A stretch of 64,000 nt of DNA from Botryllus schlosseri (Eukaryota). Below the pieces are notes generated by a model. It was given only the letters and a program-made list of their open reading frames with translations, made no database searches and was not told the DNA's origin. The DNA lies in NCBI GenBank assembly GCA_051294905.1, contig CM119373.1, positions 4,156,001 through 4,220,000 on the forward strand, given 5' to 3'. A program made the position numbers and the translations under genes. Positions 20,680 through 58,130 of this stretch are shown one piece after another (positions within the stretch are counted from its first letter, which is position 1; each line of letters begins with the position of its first letter).

Positions 20680-22810
20680 TTTTAACATAGCCTACTTAAA
20701 ACACCCATGAATTGTACTTTCTGAATATGATAGCAACTGACAGTAGCTAATAATAAAAAGCGTCAGAAAGCGTGTTAAATTTGAGCACATGTCTTGATTA
20801 GTGAAAATTTTGAAGCCTCTGCACAGAGCCGAAATCAGGGGCCTGGTACCATCGACCTACCAGCTTTTTTATACGGATCGCGAGCACCAGAGCTGTAAAA
20901 ACTAATGGGTATCAAAATCCACAATTAGAACTAAATTTCTTTTAAAAATCCGCAACTAACTAACTAAAACACAATGTACTAGGTGTAATTATACCGTATT
21001 GCACATGAGCTAAGAAATATTAGAGACAGAATCGGCATTTCAGGACACCGAGTTTTTGAATTGGAAATGGGAGGGGGTTCAATCCCCAAAATCTACCATG
21101 GCTACATCACTTACATCACCGATAACTCAGAGATAGCAATGCTGGTTTTATGAACTTCACATAACGAAATACAAGGATCGCGACTCACTCCAAACGACGA
21201 CAAGTGATTTTTAGTTGTTGGCAACTATATATTTTTTAGATTGCGCGACTGGACCTAAACCTGTACCTAAAACCTACACTAACAATTCATCTTCCCCAAC
21301 TAGAACTATAAAACTACACAAGAAACAGTATTAAGATGATCGTCAACTAACTAGGTTGGCAGTTGGTTTTATTTCCACGCAATCCGGCCCGCGACGCAAT
21401 TTTCAGTGTGGATAAGGGATATTCAAAAATTACTTTTTTTCTTAAATCGTACTAGCTACTTGATAAAATAGTTAGGTTACCTAATTTAAGCCTGCACACC
21501 AAATTTGCTTTAATTCCAGCAAGTAGCCGCATTGCTACAGCAGAAGAGAGTTTTTCTATCTATTATGTAAAATACATAATAAAAAAATTGAAAATTTTTT
21601 GTTTACCCCATGAAACTGTTAGGTTGTCTATAGAAACGATGTTCGCCAAATTTGATTCAATTCCAACCAGTGGAAGCGGAGTTATTGCCATCGAAAAATT
21701 TTGATTATCAATAAAATAGTATTTACGGTGACCACTTCTTAATAATCACGTAAATAGGCTACTATTTTATTCAAATCCAAATTTTTAACGAGGACACGTT
21801 TAAAAAATCCTAAACGTTAGTTGATCGAAACTGAAAACAGTGACTTTGAAATATTTACTGGGAATTTTGTTGTGCTGACTAAACTAAAAAAAGGTCATCA
21901 TTCTGATTCGTCCGTCGTCATTCGTTCAACTCCCGAATGACCCACTTTTTTGGTGACTTTTGTGGTGTTGACTAAAAAAGTAAATGTAGAGCATCACTTT
22001 GATTTGACTCGAACTTCCGCATCACCTGATTCACGTCATTTTTGCCGATTTTCATTTCAGTTTAGGACGAATCCTCCTAAACGAGTACGTATTGTAACCC
22101 TTTCCTAAATCGACAGTAGTCGATTGTACAGTAGTACACGCACATTCGTGCAGTAGGCTACAGTGTCGGTTTCCCATCGCCATGATATCCACATATGCGA
22201 CCGTTGACAGCTGCTTAGAACAATTGAGAGCCACATATGTTACATGTCTGCCGCTTAGGAATATTGCTAATGTTATGTCGTCCTTCAGTGACATGTCCGT
22301 GGTTGTCGGAATATTGTGTTTACCGAACAACAACATAGACAGCAGCAACAAAATCAGCTTGACAAGGAATAGGCTTCCAATGAATTGTCAATGAATCATG
22401 CAAAGCAGCATTACCGCGAACATGAATTCTAATCTGATGATTGAAAGTATTCCATATTAGCCAACGGCTACCATCCACCTAGCCTACTTGTTATATTTTA
22501 TCACCTGGTCCGCGAGTACAAAGGTTACAGATCCATGGCCTACTAAACTATTAGAGGAACTTTTTGCCGTTAGATAGCGCTATGGTGATACCATCAGTCT
22601 AGGTGCTGTATCACTGTAATTCCGGGAGCTGGTTGCCACGTTAATGAACACTTTCAACGCTGAAGATAAGGTTTTGCATTGTCTATGAAAAGATGGGCAC
22701 CTTTTTCGAATCATGCTGCAAATGGTCTACGTTGGTAATACTCTTCGGAGGTAGGTATATTTATCTGTTGAACCTGCATTTATCTTAAATATAATGATGT
22801 GGGCGACGTG

Positions 22811-22915
22811 AGTAGTGTAGGTACCTGGATTTCGTGCAGGCCAATCAAATTTCGCCACGTCGCCTTAATTGCCACGCCTACATTGCCACATCATCCGCCC
22901 ATTGCCGCACCTATA
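22811..22915 (+). repeat. Left terminal inverted repeat (TGCCACATCATC subrepeats continue to ~23030)
   Basis: Exact reverse complement of 38262-38366; imperfect for a further ~16 bp. Confidence 0.95.
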
Positions 22916-23284
22916 GGACACCCCTTGCCACATCATCCGCCCATTATCGCACCTATATGACGCCCATTGCCACATCATCTACGCCACATCATCAAGCGCC
23001 ACGCCTATAGTGCCACATCATCCATCCACAATATCATGATTATGCGTACTGAGCTGTTTTTGAGAATATGAATTCCCCTGTAATACACTAAACGTTGAAC
23101 TAGATTTCATAACGTCATCACAGAGGAATCAACCAACGATATTGATCTAGGTTTTAGGTTTGAAGCCTGTAGTCACCGCATTTCATACGATTCAGCGCTT
23201 TTCATGTCTCCTCACACTTTACTCAGTCTCATTGAAATAGCATTGCATAGTGTATCAGTTCATTTATTTCGAAAAAAGAGCATA

Positions 23285-23767
23285 TCAATGATATCGTTGA
23301 ACGTTATTGCGTCGATTCGCGTGCTGAAATCCTCCGGATCGGTCGATGTTTCGAGGTAGTCCGCTTTGATGCCATCCGACGCTGCGATCCGAGTTCTTGC
23401 GTTCGATCTGACCGTTTTGTTTGATGTAGCGATCACTGGCTTGTAGTATAAACGATACGAGCGGAAGGTCGGGATTAGGAACAACTACGCTGGGCGAATA
23501 GATGACGAATTCGTCAGCCGGATTCAGAGGTTGATAATGCTCGATCCCGTCGCGAGTATACGTAACGACCAAACCTCCTTCATGCTTCAGAGTGGCTCGA
23601 TATTTCTGAATGACCCCGCTTGTGGCATGTACAAAGAGTTGATCCGAGGTCAATTCTGCTCCATTCGAAGCTTCGATACGTAATTTTGTGATGTCATTAA
23701 AAAGATACAAGTCTTTTCTATAGGGCCCCTGGGCCAGAATAGTATCTCCACGGATTGCTAGACTCAT
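23285..23767 (-). CDS. Hypothetical Polinton cargo protein (~160 aa from MSLAIRGD...)
   Basis: ATG at 23767, 17 bp after the IAP stop; globular-looking composition; minus-strand AATAAA just downstream. No family recognised; the C-terminus may be frameshifted. Confidence 0.5.
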   Translation of the reverse strand: MSLAIRGDTILAQGPYRKDLYLFNDITKLRIEASNGAELTSDQLFVHATSGVIQKYRATLKHEGGLVVTYTRDGIEHYQPLNPADEFVIYSPSVVVPNPDLPLVSFILQASDRYIKQNGQIERKNSDRSVGWHQSGLPRNIDRSGGFQHANRRNNVQRYH

Positions 23768-23783
23768 TCTTTGAAAAGAAATA

Positions 23784-24365
23784 TCAAACATAAGTACAAC
23801 AGTCATCACGCAATTCCACCTCGCCATCAAATTTAGTCGAGCCTCTTCTTATATTAGGTGTCGCATAACAGACATTACGAATATATTGCAACCCCTTCCG
23901 CTTGATGAGAAAAGGACACGCAGGATAAAACTTTGCATGCTCGAGCCAGGGATCATCGCACGGCAACCAATTTTGAAACAACCCTCCGCATGAGAAACAC
24001 TTTAAATGATCCTTATAGCCCAAATAGAACAATCCGCAGTCTGCGAGCTCGGTTCCGGAGGTATTGATATTATCCGGCCACCGCATGAATGTGCTTAGTC
24101 TACGAGCATAGCGTGTCATGTTATAGAAAACGGGATCATTCAATGGGGAAACAGTTACATCTCTATGCTTCGCATAGCATTCACAAATCTTTTCCCCTCT
24201 GTTATTTATCATAGCTTGGTACTGTTCAATGGGACCCATCCGAGTTTCATCTTCGCCTATTCCTATGCTACTTGTGTTACCGATGCAAGCGCAGTTGAAT
24301 GTAGCGTAATTTGTAGGGTCCACACTACGCTTAGGTAGCGAATCGCTTTGATCAATGTTCGACAT
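23784..24365 (-). CDS. Inhibitor-of-apoptosis-like protein with a single BIR domain (193 aa)
   Basis: YARRLSTFMRWP...LADCGLFYLGYKDHLKCFSCGGLFQNWLPCDDPWLEHAKFYPACPFL is a full BIR with CX2CX16HX6C; no RING domain seen. Confidence 0.95.
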   Translation of the reverse strand: MSNIDQSDSLPKRSVDPTNYATFNCACIGNTSSIGIGEDETRMGPIEQYQAMINNRGEKICECYAKHRDVTVSPLNDPVFYNMTRYARRLSTFMRWPDNINTSGTELADCGLFYLGYKDHLKCFSCGGLFQNWLPCDDPWLEHAKFYPACPFLIKRKGLQYIRNVCYATPNIRRGSTKFDGEVELRDDCCTYV

Positions 24366-25939
24366 TGCTATCCGAATTGATATACTCTCATGATCAGTAT
24401 GCTTTATACCGATATTGAGCTATGCACCGTTGAAATATGTGCTTGGTACCGATCGAATGATAGGCCCCCTAGGTCGTATCACGGAAAATTAGAACGTCGA
24501 CTGCTCACAGAAAAAAGCCACGTAGCTCATATCCGTTCCTGGTACGTGTTATCAATAATTAGAATGTTAGTAAGAATGCCACGAGTACAATCACGCGGTG
24601 ATGATTAATACCTAAAAAATGACATCTTGACTCATGCATTAATTTAAAAAAATTAAACTATAGTGTATCGGAACTTAGTTTTACTTTACTGAGATTAGTT
24701 TTACTTTTCAACTAACTTGTCTGTCGATACATTCATTTAATTACGATCCCGAGAAGTCGGATCGATTCCCATAATATAACGATTCAGTGCCGACCTTATG
24801 TCTTATACTTTAGCTGACACTTACTCAGTCTCATTGAAATAGCATTGTATAGTGTACGAGCTCATTTATTTCGAAAAAGAGCATAATATATCAATGATAT
24901 CATTGTGCGTCATTGCATCGATTCACTTGCTGAAATCCTCCAGATTGATGTTTCGATGTCGCTTCACGAGTTCCATTCTTGTATTCATATATATCAACAA
25001 GCAGCTATGCAAATCCACAGCTTAGATAACTAGGGCTCTTGTATGTCATTAACATTATAGACAGCCCTTCGACGATATTCAACTGGCATTGATGCTTTCG
25101 ATACAGCGCAGTATGTATAACGTTACGCTGATCAATTCAATTTCAACAATGGGACCCCCGCACAATTATATGGTCGGATTTTCGTTGAATATTGACGACA
25201 CCCACAAATCGAAAGATCTCTTTTTCCTGCACATCTATGATGCAATTATCCTTCCAATGACTACGAATAACTTGAGATTCCGCAGGATTAATATCCGAAT
25301 CAAATAATACGAGCGTATCTTTTCCAGCTTTCAAAACTTACACTGACGCGTTCGGTCTATGTCGCAACACTACAATATGTGGCCATACAAAACGATGTAT
25401 AGTTATTTTTTGTAGTACCATCCCTACGACTTATTTCAGATCGCGGTTTACTGAGTAGAGCTTAATACTAATACCTGCATAATTTTTTGCATGTCTAGAA
25501 TAAGGGTAATTAAATCCATAGTAAAACGCCAGCGGCGACTAATAACGTTATAATGTAAGCTGCGACGGTGCTACTATAATGTTAGGAGCTATTAAAGCCG
25601 AATACGCTGAAGTATAGCATAGATTTTGCATATAAAATGTATACACAAATTTCCTGTTAAGGGTAGCCTCTGCGAAGCTGCTTATGCCTCGATGATCATA
25701 GTACTTATGAGCTATTGGATAGCGCATATACAATGTATCATATAGAACTTCGTCACTTTCGGATAGTACATATACCCCTGGGATAGAACTTAGACGCTAT
25801 AAAGATCGATGTTCGCCTACGAATTCTCGCTTTACTCATGTCGTATGCTCGATAAATTGTAAGTTGCGGCGAGCAACTCATTTTTAAAGTCCCTAAGACG
25901 CTATTGAAATGAACTCTGACTCGCTATTATCCTCAAACC

Positions 25940-26410
25940 ATGGAATTATCACGAGTATCACCTTCGCTCACTGAAGAAAAGGATGAAATTACATCCGGAG
26001 CATATTCCTTGGCGAGGAATTATATCATCTACGAACTCGACGACTCATGCGTTAAGGCAAATACGAAAGCAGAGAGAACCTTACGGCGAGTTGGGGATGA
26101 AATGTTTGAGCGACACCGAACTATCGTAAACGCGCTCTCTAAACGTCTTCGCTACTGTGATGTAGAAGTCGATGAAAAATATGAAGAATATTCACCCGAC
26201 GAGCGAATGTTCCTGATGATAGCTGATGGAATTTTCAAAGATACCCAAGAAAATTGGGGTAGGATTGTCTCTCTTTTTGTGGTCGCTAGCATTCTTGCTC
26301 GGAATAAGGAGGATGAACATCGCGGTGATCATATAGAAGGTATCATACAGACAGTTGGGAGTTACATTGGTAGTAGAAGACGAAAGTGGATAGCGCAAAA
26401 CGGAGGATGG
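25940..26410 (+). CDS. Bcl-2 family (Mcl-1/Bcl-2-like) protein, exon 1
   Basis: BH4-like SLARNYIIYEL, BH3 TLRRVGDE, BH1 ENWGRIVSLF, BH2 start WIAQNGGW followed immediately by the donor GTAAGC at 26411. Confidence 0.93.
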
Positions 26411-26655
26411 GTAAGCGATTTTACAAGCCTTACTAAGGATTTAGGAATTATTATCTATAGCTCGAGGTACTACGATCCCCAGAACCCTTATCATCCCTCG
26501 AACCTTAGATTCCACCTTATAATTTTGTTCTCAACTTTTCCCACAAAGCACTGTAATTTACTTTCCAAGCGCAGCGAACTTCGAATTACCTAACAAGTAG
26601 GCTACGCTAACTTTCTGTAAGATTTGGAAGGCTAACATTTTTATTATTGTTTCAG

Positions 26656-26775
26656 GACAGTTTTGTAGGATATTTCGATAACACAACATTCGGTAACAAT
26701 AAAGTTTGGAAGAGCCTCATGTTTGTTGGAATTGGACTGACGTCTATTGCAATGGCATTAACACGACAGCGATAA
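26656..26775 (+). CDS. Bcl-2 family protein, exon 2 (rest of BH2 plus C-terminal TM anchor); 196 aa spliced
   Basis: Branch point GCTAAC at 26631, T-rich tract, TTTCAG acceptor; translates DSFVGYFDNTTFGNNKVWKSLMFVGIGLTSIAMALTRQR*. Confidence 0.88.
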   Translation, partial: DSFVGYFDNTTFGNNKVWKSLMFVGIGLTSIAMALTRQR

Positions 26776-26993
26776 GTACAGCTCGAAAGGGCTTCAAAAA
26801 ACGCCCAACAAAACTTTCAAAGATTTCCATTCTTCAAAATAGATCGATCACGGGTGGCGTCAATAGTGGTTTTCGTTGCTATGGGAGCGATATGTTTACG
26901 TATAAGCAATATCGAAGTGCATTGAGTTATGGTTATTATAAAAGGATTGTGCTTGATGATGGAATTCATACATTGCCTTTATCTCTGTAATAA

Positions 26994-27611
26994 ATGGATC
27001 GAATACGTACATTGCATGCTCCGTTTCGGATGATCGTAGCTGGTCCGAGCAGTAGCGGGAAGAGTTATTTTACTTATGAGTTGGTGAAGAACGCAGAGAA
27101 GATGATTAGACCGGCTCCTGAAAAAATTGTATGGTTGTATAATAATTATCAGGCGTTATACGATAAAATGAAAGGGGTAGAATTTTCGCAAGGGCTCTCC
27201 GAGCTCAAAAAGTTACAGAAAGGAAATAGGCACGTTCTCTTGGTGATCGACGACATGATGACGGAAGCGAAAGAGGCCAGAGATCTATTCACTCGATACA
27301 GCCATCACGCAAAGATTAGTGTCGTGTTCATTTGTCAAAATTTATTCTATAGGGGCCAAGGCTTTCGGGATATGACCCTGAGCGCGAGCTATATCGTGAT
27401 ATTTAAAAATCCCCGTGATGCGAGTCAAATCAGTTTTCTTTCACGTCAAATGTTCCCGGATAAAGCCGGATTCCTTACGGAGGCTTATAAAAAGGCAACT
27501 CGAAAACCGTTCTCGTACATACTGGTCGACGTGACGCAAGAGACAGACGAAAATTATCGTCTTCGCAGCAAAATATTCCCACATCAAAAGTTGACGGTAT
27601 ATCAAGAATAA
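26994..27611 (+). CDS. Polinton DNA-packaging ATPase (A32/FtsK-like), 205 aa
   Basis: Walker A GPSSSGKS, Walker B LLVIDD, SHH...VVFICQNLF and FKNPRD motifs. Confidence 0.95.
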   Translation: MDRIRTLHAPFRMIVAGPSSSGKSYFTYELVKNAEKMIRPAPEKIVWLYNNYQALYDKMKGVEFSQGLSELKKLQKGNRHVLLVIDDMMTEAKEARDLFTRYSHHAKISVVFICQNLFYRGQGFRDMTLSASYIVIFKNPRDASQISFLSRQMFPDKAGFLTEAYKKATRKPFSYILVDVTQETDENYRLRSKIFPHQKLTVYQE

Positions 27612-27646
27612 ATACAGCTCGCGCTACAGATTTTAGGGCATTCAAC

Positions 27647-28055
27647 ATGTCGAAGAGGGGAAGTAACATATCTCGAAAACGATTGAGCGACTATCACGTT
27701 AAATTAAAACTTTTGAAAAACGCTAAAGGGAAACAGCGAAAAGAACTTTTATCGAACAATCAATTTTTAAGTTGCGTTTGCCAGTGCGTTCATAACTTGG
27801 CTTCGGGGACAGTACGTATCTCCCCGTCTAGAAAGTTGAGGCTTGGAAAACACAAATCCGATATCAGACAATTGCTGGCGCAAAAAACTCGCAGAGGTCA
27901 ACGGAGGGTGCTACAAAAGGGTGGATTCCTCTCAGGTATAAAAAATTATGATAAAATAGCAACTTTTTTCTAATCAGTCTCTTTTAGCTATATTAGGCGC
28001 TGCAATCCCCGTCATCGGGAGTCTGTTGGGTAAACTTTTCGGAAAGAATGCGTGA
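27647..28055 (+). CDS. Small basic Polinton core protein with a C-terminal amphipathic helix; predicted spliced (exons 27647-27935 and 27988-28055, 118 aa)
   Basis: KLKLLK...CVCQCVHNLASGTV...HKSDIRQL...QKGGFLS; removing GT..AG 27936-27987 gives QKGGFLSAILGAAIPVIGSLLGKLFGKNA*. Confidence 0.75.
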
Positions 28056-28386
28056 ACTACAATTCCCCGCATTTCGAAGCAAGGACGAATGGGAAAAGAA
28101 ATTTGATAAACATATATCGAAAATTAAAAGTTCTCCATTGAATGCTTCCGAGAAACTAGCTCTGTATAGGCATGGTATTGCTCAACTGAGAAACTTGAGA
28201 AAAGACGTAGACGCAGCGACCGCCCGCCCTCCCGCCGCACACACGGGGCTCGCGAGCCCCGTAGCGAAAGAAAAGCGCCCGCAAAAGAAACGCCCGCGCC
28301 GGATTCCACAACCTTCGTTTCCCTGGCTTTATAAGAGACAGCGTAAGCCTAATCCCCGTATATACGGGAAAGAATGGGAGACGTAG
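28048..28386 (+). CDS. Basic hypothetical Polinton protein (112 aa)
   Basis: Overlaps both neighbours in the compact gene array; K/R-rich C-terminus. Confidence 0.6.
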   Translation: MRELQFPAFRSKDEWEKKFDKHISKIKSSPLNASEKLALYRHGIAQLRNLRKDVDAATARPPAAHTGLASPVAKEKRPQKKRPRRIPQPSFPWLYKRQRKPNPRIYGKEWET

Positions 28387-29371
28387 ACTATTTTGATCCG
28401 AAACAGCCCAAATCGTATAGGGGCGCTTATTTGCAAAAGGAAAAAGAATGGCTTAAAGGACAAGATACTTATACTTTTCATTTTCCGTTACGTAAGAAAT
28501 TTAGGCGTGAACGTGTAGTGGTCTCCGGTATCAATGCTCAGTTTCAGAGCGATTTGATGGATCTGCAATCTATTTCAAAGTACAATAGCGGTTTTCGTTT
28601 TGTGGTGGTCGTGATTGATATTTTTAGCAAATACCTTTGGATGATAGCGATTAAAAATAAAACTGCTTCAAGTATGATTTCTGCTTTCAAACGTGTGTTT
28701 CGTGAACGCGTACCGTTAGTGTTACAAACCGATCAAGGTAGCGAATACACCAATCGCGCTTTCCAGAACTATCTAAAGGAGAACAAAGTTAGATATTTCT
28801 ATACGAGGAGCGAATTAAAATCCTCTGTCGTCGAAAGGGTGATTCGTACTATGAAGGCGTTATGTATCGATTTTTCACAAAAAATAACACGAGGAATTAC
28901 GTGAGCGCTCTCGATGACTTTACTTACTCCTACAACAGGACGTACCATCGTAGCATTGCCATGGCCCCAAACCAAGTGAATTCGTCTAATCAGGAATCGG
29001 TTTGGAGAAGACTTTACGGGTTTCAAGAAGCTAAACAACCCGACCTCGCTGTAGGAGTACCCGTCCGTATATCGAAAATTCGAAATCTTTTTGAGAAAAG
29101 CAGCCTACCCAACTGGCAACGGGAAATTTTCTATATCGCAGACGCCCAAAAGGGAGATCCCCCAATGTATCGCTTACGTGATTACGGTGGTGAAGTCATA
29201 CAGGGTAGATTTTATAGAGAGGAGCTCCAACGCGTAAAAGAACCGCAAACTTGGCGTGTCGAGAAGATTATAAGAAGGCGTAAACGCGCGGGACGAGAAC
29301 AGTATTTAGTGCGCTGGTTGGGATATGGAAGTGGATTCGACAGCTGGGTCGATAAGAAGGATATCGTCTAG
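28374..29371 (+). pseudogene. Retroviral-type (rve) integrase with C-terminal chromodomain, frameshifted at ~28860
   Basis: D-D-E motifs QSDLMD / LQTDQGSEY / SVVERVIRT in ORF 28374. MYRFFT...YNRTYHRSI and chromodomain WRVEKII...YLVRWLGYGSGFDSWV in ORF 28862. Only 2 nt (TT) separate GCG from ATG, i.e. one base is missing. Confidence 0.93.
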
Positions 29372-29534
29372 TCGGAACCTTTATCAGTTTTTGGCGCAAC
29401 TAGTAATCATACTGGTCATCGTATCGTTCTCTCTCTATAATCTTACCATTTCGAATGGGAACAAAGAGCTTTGGATATCACTGCTCTCCTCTTGCGTTGG
29501 TTATATGCTTCCGAATCCCAAGCTCAAAATATGA
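29325..29534 (+). CDS. Small two-helix membrane protein of Polintons (69 aa)
   Basis: Hydrophobic FLAQLVIILVIVSFSLYNL and LWISLLSSCVGYMLPNP, a pattern recalled from other Polintons; its stop overlaps the next ATG (ATGA). Confidence 0.65.
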   Translation: MEVDSTAGSIRRISSSRNLYQFLAQLVIILVIVSFSLYNLTISNGNKELWISLLSSCVGYMLPNPKLKI

Positions 29535-30340
29535 GCTACGTCACGCTATTTTCGAACGCTTCCATGGATAAATTTCCTGATAATACAACAGCGAGTTATT
29601 GCGTTGAACTGGACGTCCCGAAAAACGTGGAAGATACAGAAGTTTCTCTGGCTGAGATCTCCTTCCCTACGGATTATCAAAAACAGTATAGGATCACGAA
29701 GAATAGGTATGGGATCAGATCGCAAAAGAGAACAAGAAAATTTCATTTTAAATTGGGAGAATACGACTCGTTATATGACATGTATAGATCGTTGGAAAGA
29801 GACAATCCTGATGCAAAAGTAACATGTTTCCCTGAAAATCATAGTATGTCTATCTCTATACCTCATAACGAGGTAACCGACAAATTGCGACCAGAGACGG
29901 ACATAGGGCATAGTAGCTTGCTACGCCTCGGAGAATTGTACGGTGCTCTTATGTATAAGGAAACGAAGGAGGAGTTATTGGTGTTTCATTTCCCGAATAC
30001 TAATTGTACATTGTGGAATTATTTTTTCACCGAGGGTATCATTCATTTGAACTTTCGCATGCGACATGATCCGACTATCGATTTCGTTTATGTTCATTGT
30101 AATATCATTGAGCCACAAGAAGATAGCGGTAGGCTCTTACCGTTGTTACGCGTCGTACAGGTAAACGATCGTAAATCATTTTCGAAATATTACACGAAGC
30201 CTTTTTATTTCCCTGTTAATATAAATAGGCTAGAACGTGTCGAAATATCGCTACTTGATGAGAAGGGACAGAAAATACCCTTTCGAAGTTCTCCTTCGAG
30301 TGTTGTATTGCATTTTCGTAGACGGGGAGTTGCATTATGA
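29531..30340 (+). CDS. Minor capsid (penton/PX-like) protein 1, 269 aa
   Basis: YVTLFSNASMDKFPDNT..., VSLAEISFP, FVYVHCNIIEPQ..G..LPLLRVV, YFPV...IPF...VVLHFRR: Polinton single-jelly-roll motifs. Start taken at the ATG at 29531. Confidence 0.88.
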   Translation: MSYVTLFSNASMDKFPDNTTASYCVELDVPKNVEDTEVSLAEISFPTDYQKQYRITKNRYGIRSQKRTRKFHFKLGEYDSLYDMYRSLERDNPDAKVTCFPENHSMSISIPHNEVTDKLRPETDIGHSSLLRLGELYGALMYKETKEELLVFHFPNTNCTLWNYFFTEGIIHLNFRMRHDPTIDFVYVHCNIIEPQEDSGRLLPLLRVVQVNDRKSFSKYYTKPFYFPVNINRLERVEISLLDEKGQKIPFRSSPSSVVLHFRRRGVAL

Positions 30341-31059
30341 AATATATTCATATTACGTCACACGAGTCTGATTTTACTATCGATCTCGCGAAACCGATAG
30401 ATTCTGGTGAATGGGAGATAGGGCTTGCCGAGTTGTCTTTTAAAAATAATTTTCAGCCCACGTTCGAGCCTTACGACGGCTTATTATGGTACGTGAATGA
30501 TGCGGAAGGCGATAATAATTTTTATTATTTCCCGGCTGGTGATTATCATGATAAAATTAGTTTGATGAAGCGTATCAATCACGATCAGAAAAAAGCACGA
30601 TTTATTTGGGTAGATGGTTCTGGTCCGGTCTTGATAGCGGGACCCTACAAGAGTTCCAGCGGTCCGAGACTTTTCATGGATAATAGAAACCCCGTTCTCA
30701 GAGGAGGCGCTCGTTCGGAGGTAGAGCTAGATGGTGGATTACATAGACGAAGAAAAATTCACTTTCAAGGGGAACCTGTGTCCGTGACCAACGTTTTAGT
30801 TTATACGGATGTCATCACACCTCAAATTGTAGGTGATACGAGTGCGCCTCTACTACGCAATATCCGCGTTACGACAGGAATAGATGAATATCAGCATATG
30901 CTATTCAAAAAAATATATTTCTTTCCTCTGAATACGGAGCGAGTAAGCGAGATACGCGTTATGCTTCGTGATGATAAAGGCGAAGCTATAAAGTTTGGGA
31001 ACGCGCCTCTTCATCTCACACTTGCTTTGAGACATCATGAGGAGTCATTATTGCTGTGA
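30337..31059 (+). CDS. Minor capsid (penton/PX-like) protein 2, 240 aa
   Basis: FTIDLAKPI..GEWEIGLAEL, VLVYTDVITPQIVGDTSAPLLRNI, YFFPL...IRVMLRDDKGEAIKF; paralogous to the preceding ORF. Confidence 0.88.
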   Translation: MKYIHITSHESDFTIDLAKPIDSGEWEIGLAELSFKNNFQPTFEPYDGLLWYVNDAEGDNNFYYFPAGDYHDKISLMKRINHDQKKARFIWVDGSGPVLIAGPYKSSSGPRLFMDNRNPVLRGGARSEVELDGGLHRRRKIHFQGEPVSVTNVLVYTDVITPQIVGDTSAPLLRNIRVTTGIDEYQHMLFKKIYFFPLNTERVSEIRVMLRDDKGEAIKFGNAPLHLTLALRHHEESLLL

Positions 31060-31408
31060 TCGGGAGGCGTTCAGAAACTATTATCACCAACAGAGCGGTG
31101 GTGATATCAATTTTTTTCGGGGTAAAGTGCAGAGAGGTCATGGACTTGGAAACTTATTTCGTTCGTTCGGAAGAAGCGTTATGCCCCTAATTTCGAAAGG
31201 TGCAAAATCACTCGGGAAGCGTCTACTACATACCGGTGCGCAAGTAGCCTCTGATGTTCTTAATGGAGAGAATGTCGGTGATAGTCTTAAAATACGCGGC
31301 AAAGAAGCCGCTGGGAACGCTCTCGATTCTTTACTGAGAAAAAGAAAAATGCCAAGACGGGGTCGTAAAATCGCGAAAAAGAGACGTCGCAAAGATATTT
31401 TCGATTAA
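31037..31408 (+). CDS. Conserved Polinton core/membrane-active protein (cupiennin- or adenovirus pVI-like), 123 aa
   Basis: YYHQQSGG...QRGHGLGNLFRSFGRSVMPLISKGAKSLGK, an amphipathic helix after QxGxG motifs; basic C-terminal tail. Function is inference. Confidence 0.75.
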   Translation: MRSHYCCDREAFRNYYHQQSGGDINFFRGKVQRGHGLGNLFRSFGRSVMPLISKGAKSLGKRLLHTGAQVASDVLNGENVGDSLKIRGKEAAGNALDSLLRKRKMPRRGRKIAKKRRRKDIFD

Positions 31409-31457
31409 ATATATATTGCACGGCGATAAGCATCATTTGTTACTTGAGACTTGATAG

Positions 31458-32735
31458 ATGGCGGAGTTAATTCATGTACAGTCCCCGGAGGGGGTACATC
31501 CCTCATTGGATTTATTTCACATTCCCGCGACACAGACTAGCGTTGAAAAGAAAAGAATCATCAAGATAGCGCCGATTTCGAACAACTCTAGTGTGATAAC
31601 ATTCCGCTTTGAAGGCTCAGAAGACTTTAACGATTTGAGCGAGAGCTATTTCTTATTTCATTTACAATTAAAGAAAGATGGCGAAGCAATCGGACCCGAC
31701 GATGATGTTGGAGTTGTAAATAATATCTTGGATTCCTTGATTTCTCAACTACAAATTAAAGTCGCTAACGAAACTTTGAAACAAGATATAAAAGTACAGT
31801 GTTATTCGTCCTATCTGCACAATTTATTCGCTCCGCTTGACGTGCAAAGTACCACACTGAGGGCCTCAGGATGGAGAAAAGATACTTTAGGAGAAATGAA
31901 TACGATTGGTGGAACTAACGCCTCGGCTAACAAAGGATATTACAACAGGAGTAAAGCCTATAAGGATGATAACGTGGTGGAAATACGTGCAAAAATCCAT
32001 CACGGACTATGTCTGCAAGACCGCTACATCCTACATGACGTGCCTCTCGAGTTTGAGCTTACCTTGAATCCGAAAAGCTTTTTCATGATGGGAGATGCTG
32101 GCGGTCAATTCACCTTAACGAAAAAGGAATTACAGTTATGTAGCGTACGAGTCAGCGACGATGTGAAGACAGCGATGATGGTGAATGCCCAGGCGAAATA
32201 TCCGTATATCGACATGAAATTGATCACCCGAACATTTGCGGCTGCTACGACGCAGATAGATATCGGGAATCTATATAGCGGGACTCTACCTTCTCGCCTA
32301 ATCATCGGAATGGTAGCTACGAAAGCCTTTCAAGGAGATGTTACGAAAAATCCTTATAATTTCATACACAATAATATGCAACGACTCGAACTGAAACTGA
32401 ACGGATTTCTGATTCCGGAGGGAGGTTATGAGCTAGATTTCGATAAGGGTCATTACACGGAGCTTTACCATAACCGGATTGAGGGTACGGGTGCAATGGA
32501 GAGAAACACAGGACTCCTAACACCTGAAGAGTTCGCTAGTGGTTTCTGTCTACTGGTTTATAATTTGCGCCCTGATGATTTGGATGATTGCTTTGACTTA
32601 CAAAAGAGTGGTGCCTTAAGTTTACGGATCACATTTCCTGCTGGCGGGCTAACAGCGGAAACTACTTTGCTCTGTTTCATGGAATTCCAGAAGCTATTGC
32701 AAATCAGTAGCAGTCGTAAAGTGACCGTGCTATGA
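31458..32735 (+). CDS. Major capsid protein (double jelly-roll, PY/hexon-like), 425 aa
   Basis: LIH..S.E.....LDLFHIPATQTSVE N-terminus; VNNILDSLISQL; LPSRLIIGMV...AFQGD..KNPYNF; typical size and position before the protease. Confidence 0.92.
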   Translation: MAELIHVQSPEGVHPSLDLFHIPATQTSVEKKRIIKIAPISNNSSVITFRFEGSEDFNDLSESYFLFHLQLKKDGEAIGPDDDVGVVNNILDSLISQLQIKVANETLKQDIKVQCYSSYLHNLFAPLDVQSTTLRASGWRKDTLGEMNTIGGTNASANKGYYNRSKAYKDDNVVEIRAKIHHGLCLQDRYILHDVPLEFELTLNPKSFFMMGDAGGQFTLTKKELQLCSVRVSDDVKTAMMVNAQAKYPYIDMKLITRTFAAATTQIDIGNLYSGTLPSRLIIGMVATKAFQGDVTKNPYNFIHNNMQRLELKLNGFLIPEGGYELDFDKGHYTELYHNRIEGTGAMERNTGLLTPEEFASGFCLLVYNLRPDDLDDCFDLQKSGALSLRITFPAGGLTAETTLLCFMEFQKLLQISSSRKVTVL

Positions 32736-33187
32736 ACGGGGATGAAATAGACCAAATATTGTGGTGCTGCGAGTCAACAAAACATATTTTCCTTGGCACA
32801 TTTCCTATCGATCGACTGCCGAGGCGACCCCCTCCTCCTTATGCTATCGTGATCAATTATGACGAAGCTCGAAAAATCGGAAGTCACTGGATATGCATTT
32901 ACGCGGATGAGGATGAGACACATTTTCACGATAGTTTTGGCTTAATGCCACTGAAATACGAGATTGCCTGCTTTATAGAACCAGAAAATTATACCTGCTC
33001 TATAAAGCGTCTGCAGCACAAACGTTCCAGAGCTTGCGGTCATCATTGTCTAAGCTTTATCGTCCATAAGGCGCGCGGATGGAGTACGGAACGTTATTTA
33101 AATTCCTTCGGTGAAGATCATCGCAAGAATGATTCGATCGTGCGACGCTTCGTCAAGGAGCTGAAGCAAGAATATGAAATTGTGTAA
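32732..33187 (+). CDS. Adenain-like cysteine (maturation) protease, 151 aa
   Basis: IVINYD...GSHW (His), HDSFG (Asp), LQ...ACGHHC (Gln, Cys); AATAAA at ~33199. Confidence 0.93.
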   Translation: MNGDEIDQILWCCESTKHIFLGTFPIDRLPRRPPPPYAIVINYDEARKIGSHWICIYADEDETHFHDSFGLMPLKYEIACFIEPENYTCSIKRLQHKRSRACGHHCLSFIVHKARGWSTERYLNSFGEDHRKNDSIVRRFVKELKQEYEIV

Positions 33188-33574
33188 ATGTATATGCGAA
33201 TAAAATCAATAGTTTCAAAGTTTGCTTAGTACGTTTAAGGGCGATATTCGCTACGTTCATTATAGCAATCATCTCAAAGTAGTAGACTCTAAATCAGCAG
33301 TAGCGACTTGCTTTCGGTTAGGTGATAGTGGCTACATATTACCATTATCTAGCAAGAACCAGGAATTTGTATTGAGTGACTTCGCTCCTACAGTAAACGC
33401 AGCTTACATTACGGCGGTACTGAACATCGAGTAATAAGTGGGACTATGCAGGCTACCCTTAATACGAATTTGCATTTTGCTGGTACAATCTATGCTATAG
33501 TTGAGCGACTTTGATACGACCTCGGCACACTTCTTTGATATAGCTGCGCAAAGATGTAGCCTTGAACGCTGGCT

Positions 33575-36500
33575 TGCCTTGTCATTATATGCTTGTAACT
33601 AGTTCCAGGCTTGCGGTGCTAGTCTTCTTGGCTGCATGAAATAGGATGTTTCAGCTTAAAACTCAACGCATTAGCATGCCGAATTTGTAACCATGGCGAG
33701 ATTCGAGTATTAAGCGAGGCTAGATAGTCTACCCTTGACAGAGAACTTGCATATACATTCGAATTTATGCGACTTCGGCTATATTGCCGGTTAACATTAT
33801 AGCCGTGCACAGAACTCATTATTACGTTATTAGGTATTTAAATGATGCGATATAGGGGAAATCTCGGTGTAATTCAATCTGCGCGCATTATCCATGTATG
33901 CTCCAATGCGTTTTGCGGCTTTAGTATAGGTATTGGATCTAATATATTCTATAAAACATGTACGTTGCTATATATTTATCTTAATCCGAAGTGCATTGCT
34001 GCATCGAAAAATTATAGCTATATGCGGTACGCTGTCGATTTTTCAATATTAGTCAAGAAATGAAATAGCCCACCTTCAGTGTTGCGTAATCTGCCTTGTC
34101 ATTATATGCTTGTAACTAGTTCCAGGCTTGCGGTGCTAGTCTTCTTGGCTGTGTGAAATAGGATGTTTCAGCTTAAAACTCAACGCATTAGCATGCCTAA
34201 TTTATAACCACAGCGAGATTCGAGTAATAACCGAGCCTAGATAGTCTACCTTTAACAGAAAACTTGCATATACATTCGAATTTATGCGACTTCGGCTATA
34301 TTGTCGGTTAACATTATAGCCGTGCACAGAACTCATTATTACGTTATTAGGTATTTAAATGATGCGATATAGGGGAAATCTCGGTGTAATTCAATCTGCG
34401 CGCATTATCCATGTATGCTCCAATGCGTTTTGCGGCTTTAGTATAGGTATTGGATCTAATATATTCTATAAAACATGTACGTTGCTATATATTTATCTTA
34501 ATCCGAAGTGCATTGCTGCATCGAAAAAATTATAGCTATATGCGGTACGCTGTCGATTTTTCAATATTAGTCAAGAAATGAAATAGCCCACCTTCAGTGT
34601 TGCGTAATCTGCCTTGTCACTATATGCTTGTTCCGGGCTTGCTTGCGGTACTAGTCTTCTTGGCTGCGTGAAATAGGATGTTTCAGCTTAAAACTCAACG
34701 CATTAGCATGCCTAATTTATAACCACAGCGAGATTCGAGTAATAACCGAGCCTAGATAGTCTACCTTTAACAGAAAACTTGCATATACATTGGAATTTGT
34801 GCGACTTCGGCTATATTGTCGGTTAACATTATAGCCGTGCACAGAACTCATTATTACGTTATTAGGTATTTAAATGATGCGATATAGGGGAAATCTCGCT
34901 GTAATTCAATCTGTGCTCATTATCCATGTATGCTCCAATGCGTTTTGCGGCTTTAGTATAGGTATTGGATCTAATATATTCTATAAAACATCTACGTTGC
35001 TATATATTATATATCTTAATCCTAAGTGCATTGCTGCATTGAAAAATTATAGCTATATGCGGTACGCTGTCGATTTTTCAGTATACTCAAGAAATGAAAT
35101 AGCTCATCTTCAGTGTTGCGTAATCTGCCTTGTCACTATATGCTTGTTCCGGGCTTGCTTGCGGTACTAGTCTTCTTGGCTGCGCGAAATAGGATGTTTC
35201 AGCTTAAAACTCAACGCATTAGCATGCCTAATTTATAACCACAGCGAGATTCGAGTAATAACCGAGCCTAGATAGTCTACCTTTAACAGAAAACTTGCAT
35301 ATACATTCGAATTTGTGCGACTTCGGCTATATTGTCGGTTAACATTATAGCCGTGCACAGAACTCATTATTACGTTATTAGGTATTTAAATGATGCGGTA
35401 TAGGGGAAATCTCGCTGTAATTCAATCTGTGCGCATTATCCATGTATGCTCCAATGCGTTTTGCGGCTTTAGTATAGGTATTGGATCTAATATATTCTAT
35501 AAAACATGTACGTTGCTATATATTTATCTTAATCCGAAGTGCATTGCTGCATCGAAAAATTATAGCTATATGCGGTACGCTGTCGATTTTTCAATATTAG
35601 TCAAGAAATGAAATAGCCCACCTTCAGTGTTTCGTAATCTGCCTTGTCATTATATGCTTGTTCCGGCCTTGCTTGCGGTGCTAGTCTTCTTGGCTGCGTG
35701 AAATAGGATGTTTCAGCTTAAAACTCAACGCATTAGCATGCCTAATTTATAACCACAGCGAGATTCGAGTAATAACCGAGCCTAGATAGTCTACCTTTAA
35801 CAGAAAACTTGCATATACATTCGAATTTGTGCGACTTCGGCTATATTGTCGGTTAACATTATAGCCGTGCACAGAACTCATTATTACGTTATTAGCTATT
35901 TAAATGATGCGATATAGGGGAAATCTCGCTGTAATTCAATCTGTGCGCATTATCCATGTATGCTCCAATGCGTTTTGCGGCTTTAGTATAGGTATTGGAT
36001 CTAATATATTCTATAAAACATCTACGTTGCTATATATTATATATCTTAATCCTAAGTGCATTGCTGCATTGAAAAATTATAGCTATATGCGGTACGCTGT
36101 CGATTTTTCAGTATACTCAAGAAATGAAATAGCCCACCTTCAGTGTTGCGTAATCTGCCTTGTCACTATATGCTTGTTCCGGGCTTGCTTGCGGTACTAG
36201 TCTTCTTGGCTGCGCGAAATAGGATGTTTCAGCTTAAAACTCAACGCATTAGAATGCCTAATTTATAACCACAGCGAGATTCGAGTAATAACCGAGCCTA
36301 GATAGTCTACCTTTAACAGAAAACTTGCATATACATTCGAATTTGTGCGACTTCGGCTATATTGTCGGTTAACATTATAGCCGTGCACAGAACTCATTAT
36401 TACGTTATTAGGTATTTAAATGATGCGGTATAGGGGAAATCTCGCTGTAATTCAATCTGTGCGCATTATCCATGTATGCTCCAATGCGTTTTGCGGCTTT

Positions 36501-37436
36501 AGTATAGGTATTGGATCTAATATATTCTATAAAACATGTACGTTGCTATATATTTATCTTAATCCGAAGTGCATTGCTGCATCGAAAAATTATAGCTATA
36601 TGCGGTTCGCTGTCGATTTTTCAATATTAGTCAAGAAATGAAATAGCCCACCTTCAGTGTTGCGTAATCTGCCTTGTCATTATATGCTTGTTCCGGCCTT
36701 GCTTGCGGTGCTAGTCTTCTTGGCTGCGTGAAATAGGATGTTTCAGCTTAAAACTCAACGCATTAGCATGCCTAATTTATAACCACAGCGAGATTCGAGT
36801 AATAACCGAGCCTAGATAGTCTACCTTTAACAGAAAACTTGCATATACATTCGAATTTGTGCGACTTCGGCTATATTGTCGGTTAACATTATAGCCGTGC
36901 ACAGAACTCATTATTACGTTATTAGCTATTTAAATGATGCGATATAGGGGAAATCTCGGTGTAATTCAATCTGCGCCCATTATCCATGTATGCTCCAATG
37001 CGTTTGCGGCTTTAGTATAGGTATTGGATCTAATATATTCTATAAAACATCTACGTTGCTATATATTATATATCTTAATCCGAAGTGCATTGCTGCATTG
37101 AAAAATTATAGCTATATGCGGTACGCTGTCGATTTTTCAGTATAGTCAAGAAATGAAATAGCCCACCTTCAGTGTTGCGTAATCTGCTTTGTCACTATAT
37201 GCTTGTTCCGGGCTTGCTTGCGGTACTAGTCTTCTTGGCTGCGTGAAATAGGATGTTTCAGCTTAAAACTCAACGCATTAGCATGCCTAATTTATAACCA
37301 CAGCGAGATTCGAGTAATAACCGAGCCTAGATAGTCTACCTTTAACAGAAAACTTGCATATACATTCGAATTTGTGCGACTTCGGCTATATTGCCGGTTA
37401 ACATTATAGCCACGCACAGAACTCATTATTACGTTA
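33575..37436. repeat. Tandem array of ~515-bp units (~7.5 copies) inside the Polinton
   Basis: Anchor ATGATGCG recurs at 33842, 34359, 34874, 35390, 35904, 36420 and 36934; near-identical units in two alternating variants. Confidence 0.97.
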
Positions 37437-38261
37437 GCTATTGGAGAAATCTCAACGTAAATCAATCTGCGTTCACAATTCGCGTAAGCTAATGCTGCAT
37501 CGAGAAATTATAGCTACATTTAGTTTAAATTGGCACGAAAATACATTGATCTTACCTTATGCCTGCGATGCCTGCATCCCTGCGCACATGGCAATACTTG
37601 TAATAGAAATGTGAAGTTTTCAGAATGCGAATTGCTTTACGTCGGAACTAAACATTCTAATTCGTAACGCCAGCGCGGCGTTTTCTTGGAAACGCAACTT
37701 TATTTAGAATGTTCTAATTCACTTTGTCGATGTGGCGCAACTTTTTTGGAATCGTAAGCAACTGTATTCGTGGCACATTTACACGCGTCAATTTCTTGGA
37801 ATAGTATTCAGCAATATGCGCGTGAGCTTTCGCGTCATTGTAGACATTTATGGTGGCGATATCTGCATTATCAAGTTGCATTCGCAGAATTCCTCAAAAT
37901 CATTGACTAATTAATGATGACACAGGTGTTATAAGTGCACACGAACATAGTCTTACATTTATGTGTTATTACTCGAAAAAGGTGTTGTCTCGGAATTTAA
38001 GAGAGAATCGGCGGTTATATTCTCAAAACAGCTCAATACGGCTAGTTTGCTCAATAGCCTGGTGGTGAGCGATGTGAAATTATACCCAACCAAACCAGGT
38101 TCGATTCTAGCTTAGGTAAGTTTTGACGTGGCAATGAGTGACATAGGTGTAGCAATCGACATCGCGCGGGTTGATGATGTGCAGCGTATAGATGCGGCAA
38201 TCAATGCGGTGATGATGTGGCAATGGATGATGTGGCACTATAGACGTGGCAATGGGTGTGG

Positions 38262-38366
38262 TATAGGTGCGGCAATGGGCGGATGATGTGGCAATGTAGG
38301 CGTGGCAATTAAGGCGACGTGGCGAAATTTGATTGGCCTGCACGAAATCCAGGTACCTACACTACT
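38262..38366 (-). repeat. Right terminal inverted repeat
   Basis: Reverse complement of 22811-22915; followed by the TSD GACGTG. Confidence 0.95.
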
Positions 38367-40427
38367 GACGTGCCCTATTGGCGCTTCAAGTTATTGTGGT
38401 ATGACATTATGCTGCTTACATTGATGGATAGTATTCGGACCCCTCTAGTCCGAACCTTAGTTACGCCCGTGTTTTAGGCTATGATACGACGGTGATCTTG
38501 TAATACTCAAACGCTAGACGTACTGTATAAAAACAGTGGGACCTATGTGAGTGCCTATTACGCGCTAGCTTTGAGGATAGTCATTGTTGGTAGTAGAATT
38601 ACGAAAAACTATACGCCTGGAGCACTACAGAAAACGCGGTAACAATAAAAATTGCAAAGGACTGCTACGCACACTCACTCAATCACCATGATACTTGTCC
38701 TCATGATGTGTACATCATCGAGGTAAAACAGATAGATGTATTTTAACGACGATACCCACCTTTAACACCGTAATGAGCCGCTTATGACTTACAATTTACA
38801 CGTGTAAGGCCATCACAATTGCTAGCGACAGCACTCACTTCCTCGATCGTGCGTACAGTCATAAACATTACGAGGCCATATCACTGTGTGTCAATTGCAG
38901 ACTGTAGGCATAAGAATACCATAGTTCTTTAGATGGAACCTGACGCCTTCAGCCCCTCGCGGTAGGTTCTTCACGCAAGTGATGTAATATTTATGTTGCT
39001 AAAAGCCGTTTGTTTTGGATACGGCCTTACAGTCGATACATCAATCGCTAGCTGGTATCCTAATACTGCGTCGCTGTTCGTACGCCGTCTTTACAACAAA
39101 ACAAAAAAGACTGAAGGAAGCGAATAAAAATAGCGTGTAAGGCGTGAAAAGACAGACAGCCGAGAAGAGAAGCATCTGCCACTGTTGTAGGTGGATGTTA
39201 GATTGATAAACAATACTTGGTCGTGTCGACATCCTGATATCTGTTCATTACACCCCGATCTGTCGTGTAATTTACCATCAATAGTGTAGGCCTACGTTGT
39301 GTGCCGCGAGCATATGAAAAAATAAAACCGCGGATTAAGGTGATAAGTTTGATCTACCGTATTACAACATGGGGAAGTTTAATGTTGTATGTGATGGGAC
39401 AATTGAAAAGAAAATTAGCAAATGTTCGCCTTCATAACTTGCCAGTAAAGTATACAATGTTCTTCGTTGGTGAATATCTTCCTATATCAATGCCCAGATT
39501 TCAACATCTAGAAACCGCAAACAATTACAAACTCTATACCACACAGGAACTGTGAACTCATCGAATATGAACGGCTGTAAGAAATCCTACTTTGTAAGTT
39601 GCGCACGCTTTACTTTATGCGTAGAGTGAATACTAATTAGCCCTCAAGTTTACCGGACTACGACCAGACATATCGATCGTGCCTTCCGTCACATGATACC
39701 CCATTTTGTCGCTTGCATTTTTATGTTATCCTCTGTTACGTTTCATTCAGTGTGCATGCCTCCTCTCCACATCGGCTAGGGCCTTGGCCCACGTATATGT
39801 TTGATGTCGAAGACTACTTCAGGTCAATTCGACACCTTCCTATATTTTCGTCGTATCGCAGTCTTGTGGTATTTTGAAATGATGAAATTATTATTAAACT
39901 GATCGTGACTATGGCTAAGACGTGGCGTATAGTAAGCAGTGGTCAAAACGATTTGATAGCTGTAAATAAACCAATGGGCCTTTGCATGACTGTTAATGAA
40001 ATGGATATGCAGAAATGTAATAAAACTATCCACATAGTGCAGACCTGACCATTCCAATATATCTGGCATTAGAGTTACACCTTGATCCGAAAATTCGCAA
40101 GGGTGCTATAGTAAGGATAGGTCCATCGTCGGTGATTAATCATATTACTGCTCTATTTCTCACAGGACATGAATGGTGAGACACAGCATTTTGTCAATGG
40201 ATCTACATTCAATACTGATTGTGGATTGTGGTGATGTATAAGACATTAATTTCTGATATGCGACAGTTGTCCATTTTCAAGTGTTGAACCTAACTGTAGA
40301 CTGATGTCTTCGACTTTTATTTCCAGACTTCGTAACATGGTGTTATGTAGGCCTGTCTGTAAACCATGTCTAGTTTAATCTGAAGGGTATTTTAAGCGTA
40401 AGTGTCAAGGTTCAAGTTTTAAAATCA

Positions 40428-47390: not shown

Positions 47391-47549
47391 ATTGACCAAA
47401 AAAACGGGTGCATTATCATATGTATGATTTGAGTGAGTGTCATGACATCCGCGGAATCCACGAGACTGGCTCTTGGAACCCCTAGTGTTCCATGGAACGC
47501 CGGTCCAGAACCACCGCTTTAAAGGTCAACGACACTCTTGTGTTTTCAG

Positions 47550-48190
47550 AGTGTAACAATTCCATCTTCAAATTTCCGAATGAAAACCATTTGGATTACG
47601 TCCAGTACAGCGGCACGCTACAGAGTATGGCGTCGTTTTCCACGTGTTTCTGGATAAGTTCAGTGAACGAAAGCAAACCGGCCAAGGGCTCAATTATAAG
47701 TTACTGTGCATTCGGTTCAGCATATTGTAATACGTTCGGAATAGAAGTGTATGGAAACGAACTGAGGTACTGGAATGAGAAGACGTTGAACTGGGATGCG
47801 TATCCCATGCGTCGCATGATTACTTATCAGACACATATCTGTCTACTCGTAAAACATTCTGCATTGCAAATCTACATCAACGCTACCATGATCGACGGCA
47901 GACTCGGAGCTGCATCACCAATACCAGGTGGTGGCGTGCTGATTTTCGGGCAGAATCAAGATCACGATTACGTTGGTGTTCGGCCTGGTAAACCGGATCA
48001 TTTTGACCAAGGTTTCTACGGTATAATGGAAGGTTTACGTATCTGGAATAAAGCTCTCAGTGCATCTGAAATACATCGTATGTATAGGTGCGATGGAAGC
48101 AGTTGTGAGGATGACGCAATCGTGATTGTTAACCAATCGAACACATGCTTGCAAGGTCAGGTGATTGCAAACTGCAGTGTACCTTGTTAG
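47550..48190 (+). CDS. Intact pentraxin/LamG-like terminal exon (paralog of 12033-12681)
   Basis: TTTTCAG acceptor, phase 1; CNNSIFKFP...FSTCFWI...THICL...IYINA...GGVLIFGQNQD...FYGIMEGLRIWNKAL. Confidence 0.88.
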
Positions 48191-51938: not shown

Positions 51939-52105
51939 AGTAGTGAGGTTTGGTCAAATATACGCAGACCAATCCCAGAAGGCCACGTCGCCTTAATTGC
52001 CACGCCTACATTGCCACATCATCCGCCCATTGCCGCACCTATAGCACGCCTATTGCCACATCATCCACCCATTGCTATATCATCGCTGCATTGATTTCCG
52101 CATCT
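51939..52105 (+). mobile_element. Terminus (TIR) of a second Polinton-related element; the other end is not in the window
   Basis: Starts AGTAGTG; 51982-52043 is identical to 22854-22915, at the same +43 offset from the terminus. Confidence 0.85.
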
Positions 52106-57900: not shown

Positions 57901-58130
57901 ATACTCAACTTTCATAGCGGAATTACCGAGCTAAACATTGAATGCGCAACTTGAAGATTGGTTCACAGGTGTAGGGCAGTATGACAATGGAACACATCAA
58001 ATTTCATCACACATTTCATGATGGAACACCTTTAAAACTAACGCAGTTCTATACCAACTTCGCGTGAATCTGTTTGCGGGAGCGTAGCACGTACCTATGC
58101 GTGATCAACTTTAGTGATGGAATTACATAT
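54977..58130. repeat. Satellite of ~200-bp diverged monomers with a ~1389-bp higher-order unit
   Basis: The AAATTTCATCACACAT-like anchor recurs at 55204, 55400, 55607, 55809, 56018, 56220...; near-identical blocks are offset by 1388-1389 bp (ORFs 55190/56579, 56034/57422). Confidence 0.93.

Follow-up and report, generated by a model that had tools for sequence, protein, structure and literature searches.

Polintons are defined by their polymerase, and whether they exist in animals as viruses, as transposons or as both is debated. A 64,000-nt stretch of Botryllus schlosseri DNA (assembly GCA_051294905.1, contig CM119373.1, positions 4,156,001–4,220,000 of the forward strand), here termed the window, carries at 22811–38366 a Polinton that has terminal inverted repeats and virion genes and is devoid of a polymerase gene. 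This raises the question of whether the element is a copy that decayed where it stands, or belongs to a lineage that spreads without a polymerase of its own. The evidence favours a lineage. The element appears to be part of a non-autonomous sub-lineage of an abundant adintovirus-like Polinton family, most likely copied by the polymerase of sister elements; a probability of about 0.72 is assigned to this reading. Being polymerase-less, many times integrated and in genetic exchange with its relatives, the sub-lineage offers a natural handle on the virus/transposon question.

The segment that distinguishes the element is revealed by comparison with three polymerase-bearing copies, the sisters, present in the 495 Mb of genome searched. 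The sisters align with the element up to position 24597 and resume at 26764, and have 5.35 kb in between instead of 2.17 kb. Their 5.35 kb contain an open reading frame (ORF) of 426 aa and another of 1294 aa, both open, the latter ending just 5′ of the ATPase gene. In the element this place is taken by a 2.2-kb cassette (24598–26763, plus strand, delimited by the alignment). The sister DNA it replaces comprises the 426-aa ORF and polymerase codons 1 to ~1214, about 94% of the gene. A tblastn search of the window with the sister polymerase finds residues 1215–1294 at 26745–26987 on the plus strand (76% identity, E 2e-28) and nothing else, and the 426-aa ORF has left no tblastn trace in the window. 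The polymerase ORF expected of an autonomous Polinton is therefore absent, 80 of 1294 codons being left, and this remnant has differing frame-breaking indels in different copies. A Pfam scan of 14 ORFs shows no helicase, primase or polymerase family.

The remnant and the sister alignment indicate that the element descends from a polymerase-bearing ancestor by segment replacement. Judged from the sequences, the lineage is a deletion/replacement derivative and not primitively without polB.

The 1294-aa ORF of the sisters encodes a protein-primed DNA polymerase B (PolB, or pPolB). Most of its 120 listed homologues carry the PF03175 domain (38–58% identity over 90–100% of residues 440–1294), PF03175 families make up 20 of its 30 nearest Atlas clusters, and the usual polymerase motifs can be recognized by eye. 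Direct Pfam scans of the sister polymerase do not detect PF03175 and give weak Pox_F12L and RAP matches only, and a sequence search of the PDB returns a zinc-finger stretch only. A genome-wide search with PF03175 is uninformative, as it returned nothing, not even for its controls. PF03175 misses even the intact polymerase of this family, and ‘polB-less’ calls that depend on that model alone are therefore unreliable. The sister polymerase also has a C2H2 zinc-finger-like stretch at residues 303–324 and a weak RAP/nuclease-like match at residues 818–867.

The polymerase-less arrangement is found repeatedly in the genome. A 2401-bp query that spans both cassette junctions matches over its full length at 10 other loci (92–99% identity), a lower bound, as 40 of 1492 candidates were scored. 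These 10 copies are collinear with the element from the left arm to the repeat array, save for private insertions and deletions, and the cassettes of the polymerase-less copies are 96.0–99.6% identical. Both ends were recovered for eight of the 11 copies (in the other three, one end lay beyond the DNA examined), and no two of the eight share a flank or a 6-bp duplication, every duplication being perfect. Two of the polymerase-bearing sisters also sit between duplications of their own. Frame-breaking indels in the remnant and near the Bcl-2 3′ end are common to subsets of copies that reside at different loci, and thus the lineage diversified and went on integrating after the polymerase was lost. 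The cassette junction is also a specific marker, by which the lineage could be traced across individuals and species as well as among free linear DNA or particle fractions.

The family as a whole is abundant. Genome-wide, 99 matches to the capsid gene were scored, and 35 are full-length, open and 96–98% identical to the present copy. Polymerase matches of at least 93% identity include 17 (of 25) that are full-length and without stops, and these are candidate helpers. Seven core genes, those for the ATPase, the integrase, both pentons, the 123-aa ORF, the capsid protein and the protease-like protein, are all open in all three sisters. Further capsid-gene lineages, mostly with open frames, are present in the genome at about 80%, 64–69% and 34–35% identity, as are polymerases at 62–79% identity.

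A first-pass annotation of the locus had proposed a helper-dependent lineage rather than a decayed copy, and had suggested a search for polB-less copies at independent loci with different duplications and for a polB-encoding partner with the same ends. Both were found, the former at the 10 further loci, where the duplications are distinct in eight cases out of eight, and the latter in the sisters, which have the terminal repeat and the virion module in common with the element. The recurrence of the junctions contradicts a one-off deletion after insertion. What must be amended is the origin and the state of the element. The annotation saw no ORF or remnant of a size to fit pPolB and had said beforehand that one would count against its proposal; a pPolB fragment is present at 26745–26987. 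A polymerase-less lineage does propagate beside polymerase-bearing partners that have the same ends, but it arose by deletion and replacement and retains a remnant. In addition, this particular copy is itself damaged, its integrase frame being broken. Two properties expected of a helper-dependent derivative are nevertheless present, namely loss of the replication gene with retention of the ends, and propagation after the loss.

The integrase gene (28374–29371, plus strand) encodes a retrovirus-like rve core (E 1.5e-13) and a chromodomain (E 1.2e-8), and is split into two frames near 28860, a break absent from the first-pass annotation. The break is a single-nucleotide length difference that is missing from 20 of the 21 other copies examined. 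It was considered as a lesion unique to this copy, which was rejected as one polymerase-bearing copy at another locus has the same break. That polymerase-bearing copy is also the nearest relative of the present copy in the junction-side region. The allele with the break has apparently either been propagated or been exchanged.

The two arms of the element have different histories. Trees of the left arm and of the virion region comprise the 11 polymerase-less copies and only three polymerase-bearing copies, and the junction-side region (2.6 kb) comprises 11 copies of each kind. In the left arm (23204–24597), on the side of the gene for the inhibitor of apoptosis (IAP), the 11 polymerase-less copies lie on one side of a branch and the three sisters on the other, with a support of 99.8 in the Shimodaira–Hasegawa-like approximate likelihood ratio test (SH-aLRT). 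Mean identity there is 97.2% within the polymerase-less group and 95.5% between groups. In the virion region (29531–33187), identity is 97.9% both among polymerase-less copies and between the two kinds, and 97.7% among sisters, and three well-supported groups mix both kinds. A tree in which the polymerase-less copies are forced together is 209 log-likelihood units worse for this region (approximately unbiased (AU) test, p = 1.4e-58), and the same constraint gives AU p = 0.021 for the junction-side 2.6 kb. The mixing of the virion genes implies that the two kinds of element exchange right-hand genes repeatedly. The exchange could take place while the two kinds co-replicate, or by ectopic conversion among copies in the chromosomes.

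Virion genes and IAP are under purifying selection. The ratio of non-synonymous to synonymous polymorphism (pN/pS), computed among the polymerase-less copies, is low in the ATPase gene (0.07), the two halves of the integrase (0.10 and 0.19), the protease-like ORF (0.16), the capsid gene (0.19), penton 2 (0.20) and IAP (0.21). The synonymous excess is significant throughout (p < 1e-6), with p < 1e-7 for the five genes other than the integrase. Penton 1 is less constrained (pN/pS 0.46). Selection estimated pair by pair gives the same picture, with no difference between pairs of one kind and pairs that combine both. The dN/dS check that had been proposed for the capsid genes therefore does detect purifying selection, though in genes that are pooled with those of the polymerase-bearing copies. 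The constraint on IAP can be assigned to the polymerase-less lineage itself, as IAP tracks the lineage.

The ends of the element carry a further record. Its termini read AGTAGTG...CACTACT, and direct GACGTG duplicates abut both of them (22805–22810 and 38367–38372); terminal inverted repeats (TIRs) and a 6-bp target-site duplication are characteristic of Polintons/Mavericks. The TIRs were delimited by repeat search and comparison of copies, and lie at 22811–22934 on the plus strand and 38243–38366 on the minus strand. The repeat search gives an inverted repeat of 129 nt with 96% identity, which includes five flank bases because the GACGTG duplication is partly palindromic. The TIRs and the 6-bp duplication had been described at first as perfect. 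The duplication is perfect and the first 104 nt of the two tips are identical, but beyond these the TIRs diverge into imperfect motifs of ~14 nt. All family copies, of either kind, have the same 7-nt tip and agree again from ~45 nt inward. Within the outermost stretches (22811–22850 and 38327–38366 in the present copy), positions ~8–30 differ strongly between copies, yet are matched at the two ends within each copy, such that the two ends of one copy agree by 93–100% over 120 nt. The tip of the present element is 92% identical to those of two polymerase-bearing sisters, compared with 80–86% to those of other polymerase-less copies. A hypervariable but end-matched tip may be a record of end-to-end copying during free linear replication.

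A course of events can be proposed from these observations. In an ancestor of the sub-lineage, 5.35 kb was swapped for the 2.2-kb cassette with its Bcl-2 gene, leaving the last 80 polymerase codons behind as a dead remnant. The derivative retained its cis-acting ends together with the genes for integrase, packaging ATPase, both pentons, capsid and protease-like protein, and then integrated at no fewer than 11 loci. Its DNA would be copied by the polymerase of co-resident sisters that have the same TIR architecture. Copying by a sister polymerase is the most likely course because the element has no replication gene of its own, and a helper polymerase would be the most economical mechanism. Virion, ATPase and integrase genes repeatedly recombine between sisters and polymerase-less copies. 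The present copy would now need an integrase in trans as well, its own frame being broken. Spread would take place either through virions or within the germline only.

Other explanations need to be weighed against copying in trans by a sister. It is very improbable that polB was lost once from this copy after insertion, or that it is hidden in a collapsed repeat. There is indeed a polymerase remnant, and the element has a non-coding tandem array of 4 kb (33493–37515; eight units of ~515 bp, which exceed the longest period of 500 allowed by Tandem Repeats Finder and were documented by a separate repeat search) in which sequence might collapse. Against this stand the same junctions at 10 other loci with different duplications; in addition, the polymerase of the sisters is to the left of the ATPase gene, outside the array, and the sisters themselves have related arrays with differing unit numbers. 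Spread by integrase-mediated cut-and-paste, with host polymerases acting in gap repair or chromosomal replication and with no helper polymerase, appears improbable, if less so. The integrase is retained and is open in seven of the 11 polymerase-less copies, and TIRs with 6-bp duplications are the signature of an integrase. However, end-matched tips that differ between copies are more readily explained by a free linear genome copied from end to end than by simple excision and reinsertion, and the presence of the broken integrase version in a polymerase-bearing copy elsewhere suggests that trans-complementation occurs.

A closer competitor, and still an unlikely one, is that the elements are intragenomic non-autonomous transposons only, mobilized in the germline by the polymerase and integrase of the sisters without formation of particles, and with capsid genes that are overwritten from polymerase-bearing copies. 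The virion genes of the two kinds do form one pool, at least one core gene is broken in seven of the 11 polymerase-less copies, and virion-gene reads are almost lacking from two single-cell RNA runs. Yet pN/pS in virion genes is still 0.11–0.40 for variants confined to one polymerase-less copy, which is unexpected if these genes decay freely between conversions. This explanation has the trans-replication step in common with the favoured one, and only the route of spread differs. Copying by the polymerase of the sisters remains the preferred reading. It may tentatively be extended, at somewhat less than even odds, to a long-lived, capsid-encoding polintovirus ‘satellite’. Such an entity would have traded its polymerase for a cargo cassette, would co-replicate and recombine with its sisters, and would package itself with virion genes from a shared pool. 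The end-matched variable TIR tips would then be a footprint of protein-primed replication as a free linear molecule, in separate rounds that preceded the individual integrations.

Several points weigh against the preferred reading. All seven core genes are open in only four of the 11 polymerase-less copies. Bcl-2, the sole gene private to the lineage, cannot be told from neutral (pN/pS 0.74, p = 0.17), and is open in six of the 11 copies and broken in five. It had been suggested that the element blocks apoptosis. The state of Bcl-2 makes this weak as far as that gene goes, and IAP is conserved but carried by the sisters too. As the virion genes belong to a pool shared with polymerase-bearing copies, their constraint is not attributable to the polymerase-less lineage itself. 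The mixing of virion genes could stem from ectopic gene conversion between chromosomal copies and not from co-replication. The left-arm clade, with three polymerase-bearing copies sampled, might dissolve under more sampling. Lastly, replication in trans is inferred from sequence comparison.

The remaining genes give the element its Polinton character. At the left, on the minus strand, are a 180-aa ORF of unassigned function, found by ORF scan and present also in the polymerase-bearing sisters (23285–23827), and the IAP-like gene with its single BIR domain (23784–24365; PF00653, E 1.7e-18). ORFs in the region 24420–25912 are all of 84 aa or less. The Bcl-2 family gene lies within the cassette (25940–26593, plus strand; PF00452, E 1.4e-20). 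Downstream of the cassette, and all on the plus strand, are the A32/FtsK-like packaging ATPase gene characteristic of Polintons/Mavericks (26994–27611; PF04665 (Pox_A32), E 8.3e-9, above the curated cut-off), two small ORFs of 108 and 112 aa from the ORF scan with no assigned function (27647–28386), and, beyond the integrase gene, the virion genes. The latter were first described as open, together with the ATPase, a protease and small structural genes. The frames are open as described, but the identity of the protease is not established.

The penton paralogues, of 269 aa (29531–30340) and 240 aa (30337–31059), are mutually homologous (E 5e-12); the first was recognized by its paralogy to the second and by profile search, the second by its structure model. 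The model of penton 2 (50 sequences, predicted local distance difference test (pLDDT) 85.9) matches the mavirus penton with E 2e-8, and also the Sputnik penton and adenovirus penton bases. After a basic 123-aa ORF (31037–31408; ORF scan, function not assigned) comes the 425-aa capsid gene (31458–32735). The capsid model is of low confidence (seven sequences, pLDDT 59.6); it matches the Sputnik capsid (E 3e-13), the mavirus capsid (E 6e-11) and also that of Paramecium bursaria chlorella virus 1 (PBCV-1), and all its top structural matches are double-jelly-roll capsid proteins. The element therefore has the predicted capsid and penton genes of a Polinton/Maverick, the capsid from a low-confidence model. 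The 151-aa protease-like ORF (32732–33187) fits a protease in position and size; it has no Pfam or PHROG match, and its best PDB sequence match is the S273R protease of African swine fever virus (ASFV) with E 0.53. A search of PHROGs gave no match for eight proteins. By word-based protein search penton 2 has no relatives and the capsid protein has one (77% identity), and a full HMMER search with a two-penton profile yields 6063 relatives at E ≤ 0.001. Some penton relatives of ~540 aa match this profile in three to four stretches, resembling fused tandem pairs, and one was called together with an rve-chromo integrase. The tandem arrangement of two pentons may be widespread.

Transcripts of the family were found in the two single-cell RNA runs, with 135 and 86 reads, which map mostly to 23057–23770 in the sense of the 180-aa ORF and have a poly(A) end near 23263. 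The variants in these reads are those of other copies and not of this one. The 180-aa ORF is the most transcribed part, and Bcl-2 and the virion genes are almost uncovered. In a run of uncertain kind, contig joints with GT..AG borders on the minus strand are seen at 27116>29446, 29575>32062, 30211>32062 and 32111>32993, the first of these being backed by one single-cell RNA read. The joints may represent spliced antisense transcripts across the virion genes.

Parts of the cassette are found in other settings. The Bcl-2 part (25908–26766) is present at 17 other places with 82–83% identity, including six inverted pairs that are 8.5–12 kb apart, and no related capsid gene is listed near these 17 matches. 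Another family of elements, without a capsid, seems to carry Bcl-2 in each of its arms. One locus (L036), which forms the left end of a TIR pair spanning 12.3 kb, contains a 694-bp stretch with 98% identity to 25069–25762, a non-coding part in the middle of the cassette, and its first 4 kb have no ORF of more than 111 aa. The window itself has, outside the element, a TIR-like piece (96%) and a satellite array (51969–52105, 53499–53576, 54480–54834 and 55198–63872), and both are also found at L036. An interpretation of L036 as a miniature element of ~2 kb was rejected, as its second TIR-like piece has no tip. Flanking ORFs in the window (12094–12681 and 47486–48190) encode pentraxin/laminin-G-like domains, which mark the host as an animal.

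The closest known relatives are the adintovirus-like Polintons/Mavericks of animals, as described in the available sections of PMC8502044. The element resembles these in its TIRs, 6-bp duplication, rve integrase with chromodomain, A32-like ATPase, double-jelly-roll capsid, penton and a protease-like ORF that follows the capsid gene. Bcl2 and IAP homologues are listed there among adintovirus accessory genes (Starrett et al. 2021, PMC8502044). PF03175 misses the sister polymerase, as it does the divergent ‘Beta’ PolB class treated in the same sections (PMC8502044), and the portion of Jeong et al. at hand reports pPolBs with a VSR-nuclease insertion from marine molluscs and nematodes. The present element and the 10 other copies differ from adintovirus-like Polintons in the absence of a polymerase gene and in having two penton paralogues in tandem.

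According to the available part of PMC5499653, Polintons are defined by pPolB together with the integrase, whereas polinton-like viruses (PLVs) are described in the available parts of PMC11161782 and PMC5499653 as mostly without the rve integrase, without pPolB and with other replication genes. Like PLVs, the element combines capsid, penton, ATPase and protease-like genes and lacks a protein-primed PolB. It is unlike them in having an rve integrase and a polB remnant, and in that no alternative replication gene is found in the 14 ORFs scanned.

Defective-interfering genomes and satellite viruses also invite comparison. These derive from a helper by internal deletion, keep its cis-acting ends and depend on it for replication. 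As a rule, classical satellites use a borrowed capsid and defective genomes do not last long. The polymerase-less lineage, in contrast, keeps its own virion genes, has diversified, as the range of cassette identities shows, and is fixed in chromosomes.

A polymerase-less, capsid-bearing lineage is not described in the available portions of PMC4028283 or PMC6431247, and a keyword search of the literature on Bcl-2 in polintons found nothing on the subject. The nearest precedent is from Pieris mannii, where, in the accessible part of a preprint, polB-lacking polintons with TIRs are reported beside near-identical copies that keep polB, and are apparently still mobile (Igolkina et al., 2026 preprint, bioRxiv 10.1101/2025.02.07.637071). 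These authors ask how polB-lacking polintons are mobilized (10.1101/2025.02.07.637071). In the part available, polB loss in Pieris mannii is tied to insertions of long interspersed nuclear elements (LINEs) or gypsy elements and described for a few structural variants, whereas here a Bcl-2 cassette has replaced the gene. The Botryllus lineage goes beyond the Pieris case as there described, with at least 11 insertions, eight of them with verified distinct duplications, one monophyletic arm, and another arm that is recombinant with the sisters. Thus, mobile polintons without polB, and Bcl2 and IAP as cargo, are already known, and a lineage founded by replacement of the polymerase with a Bcl-2 cassette is a new variation.

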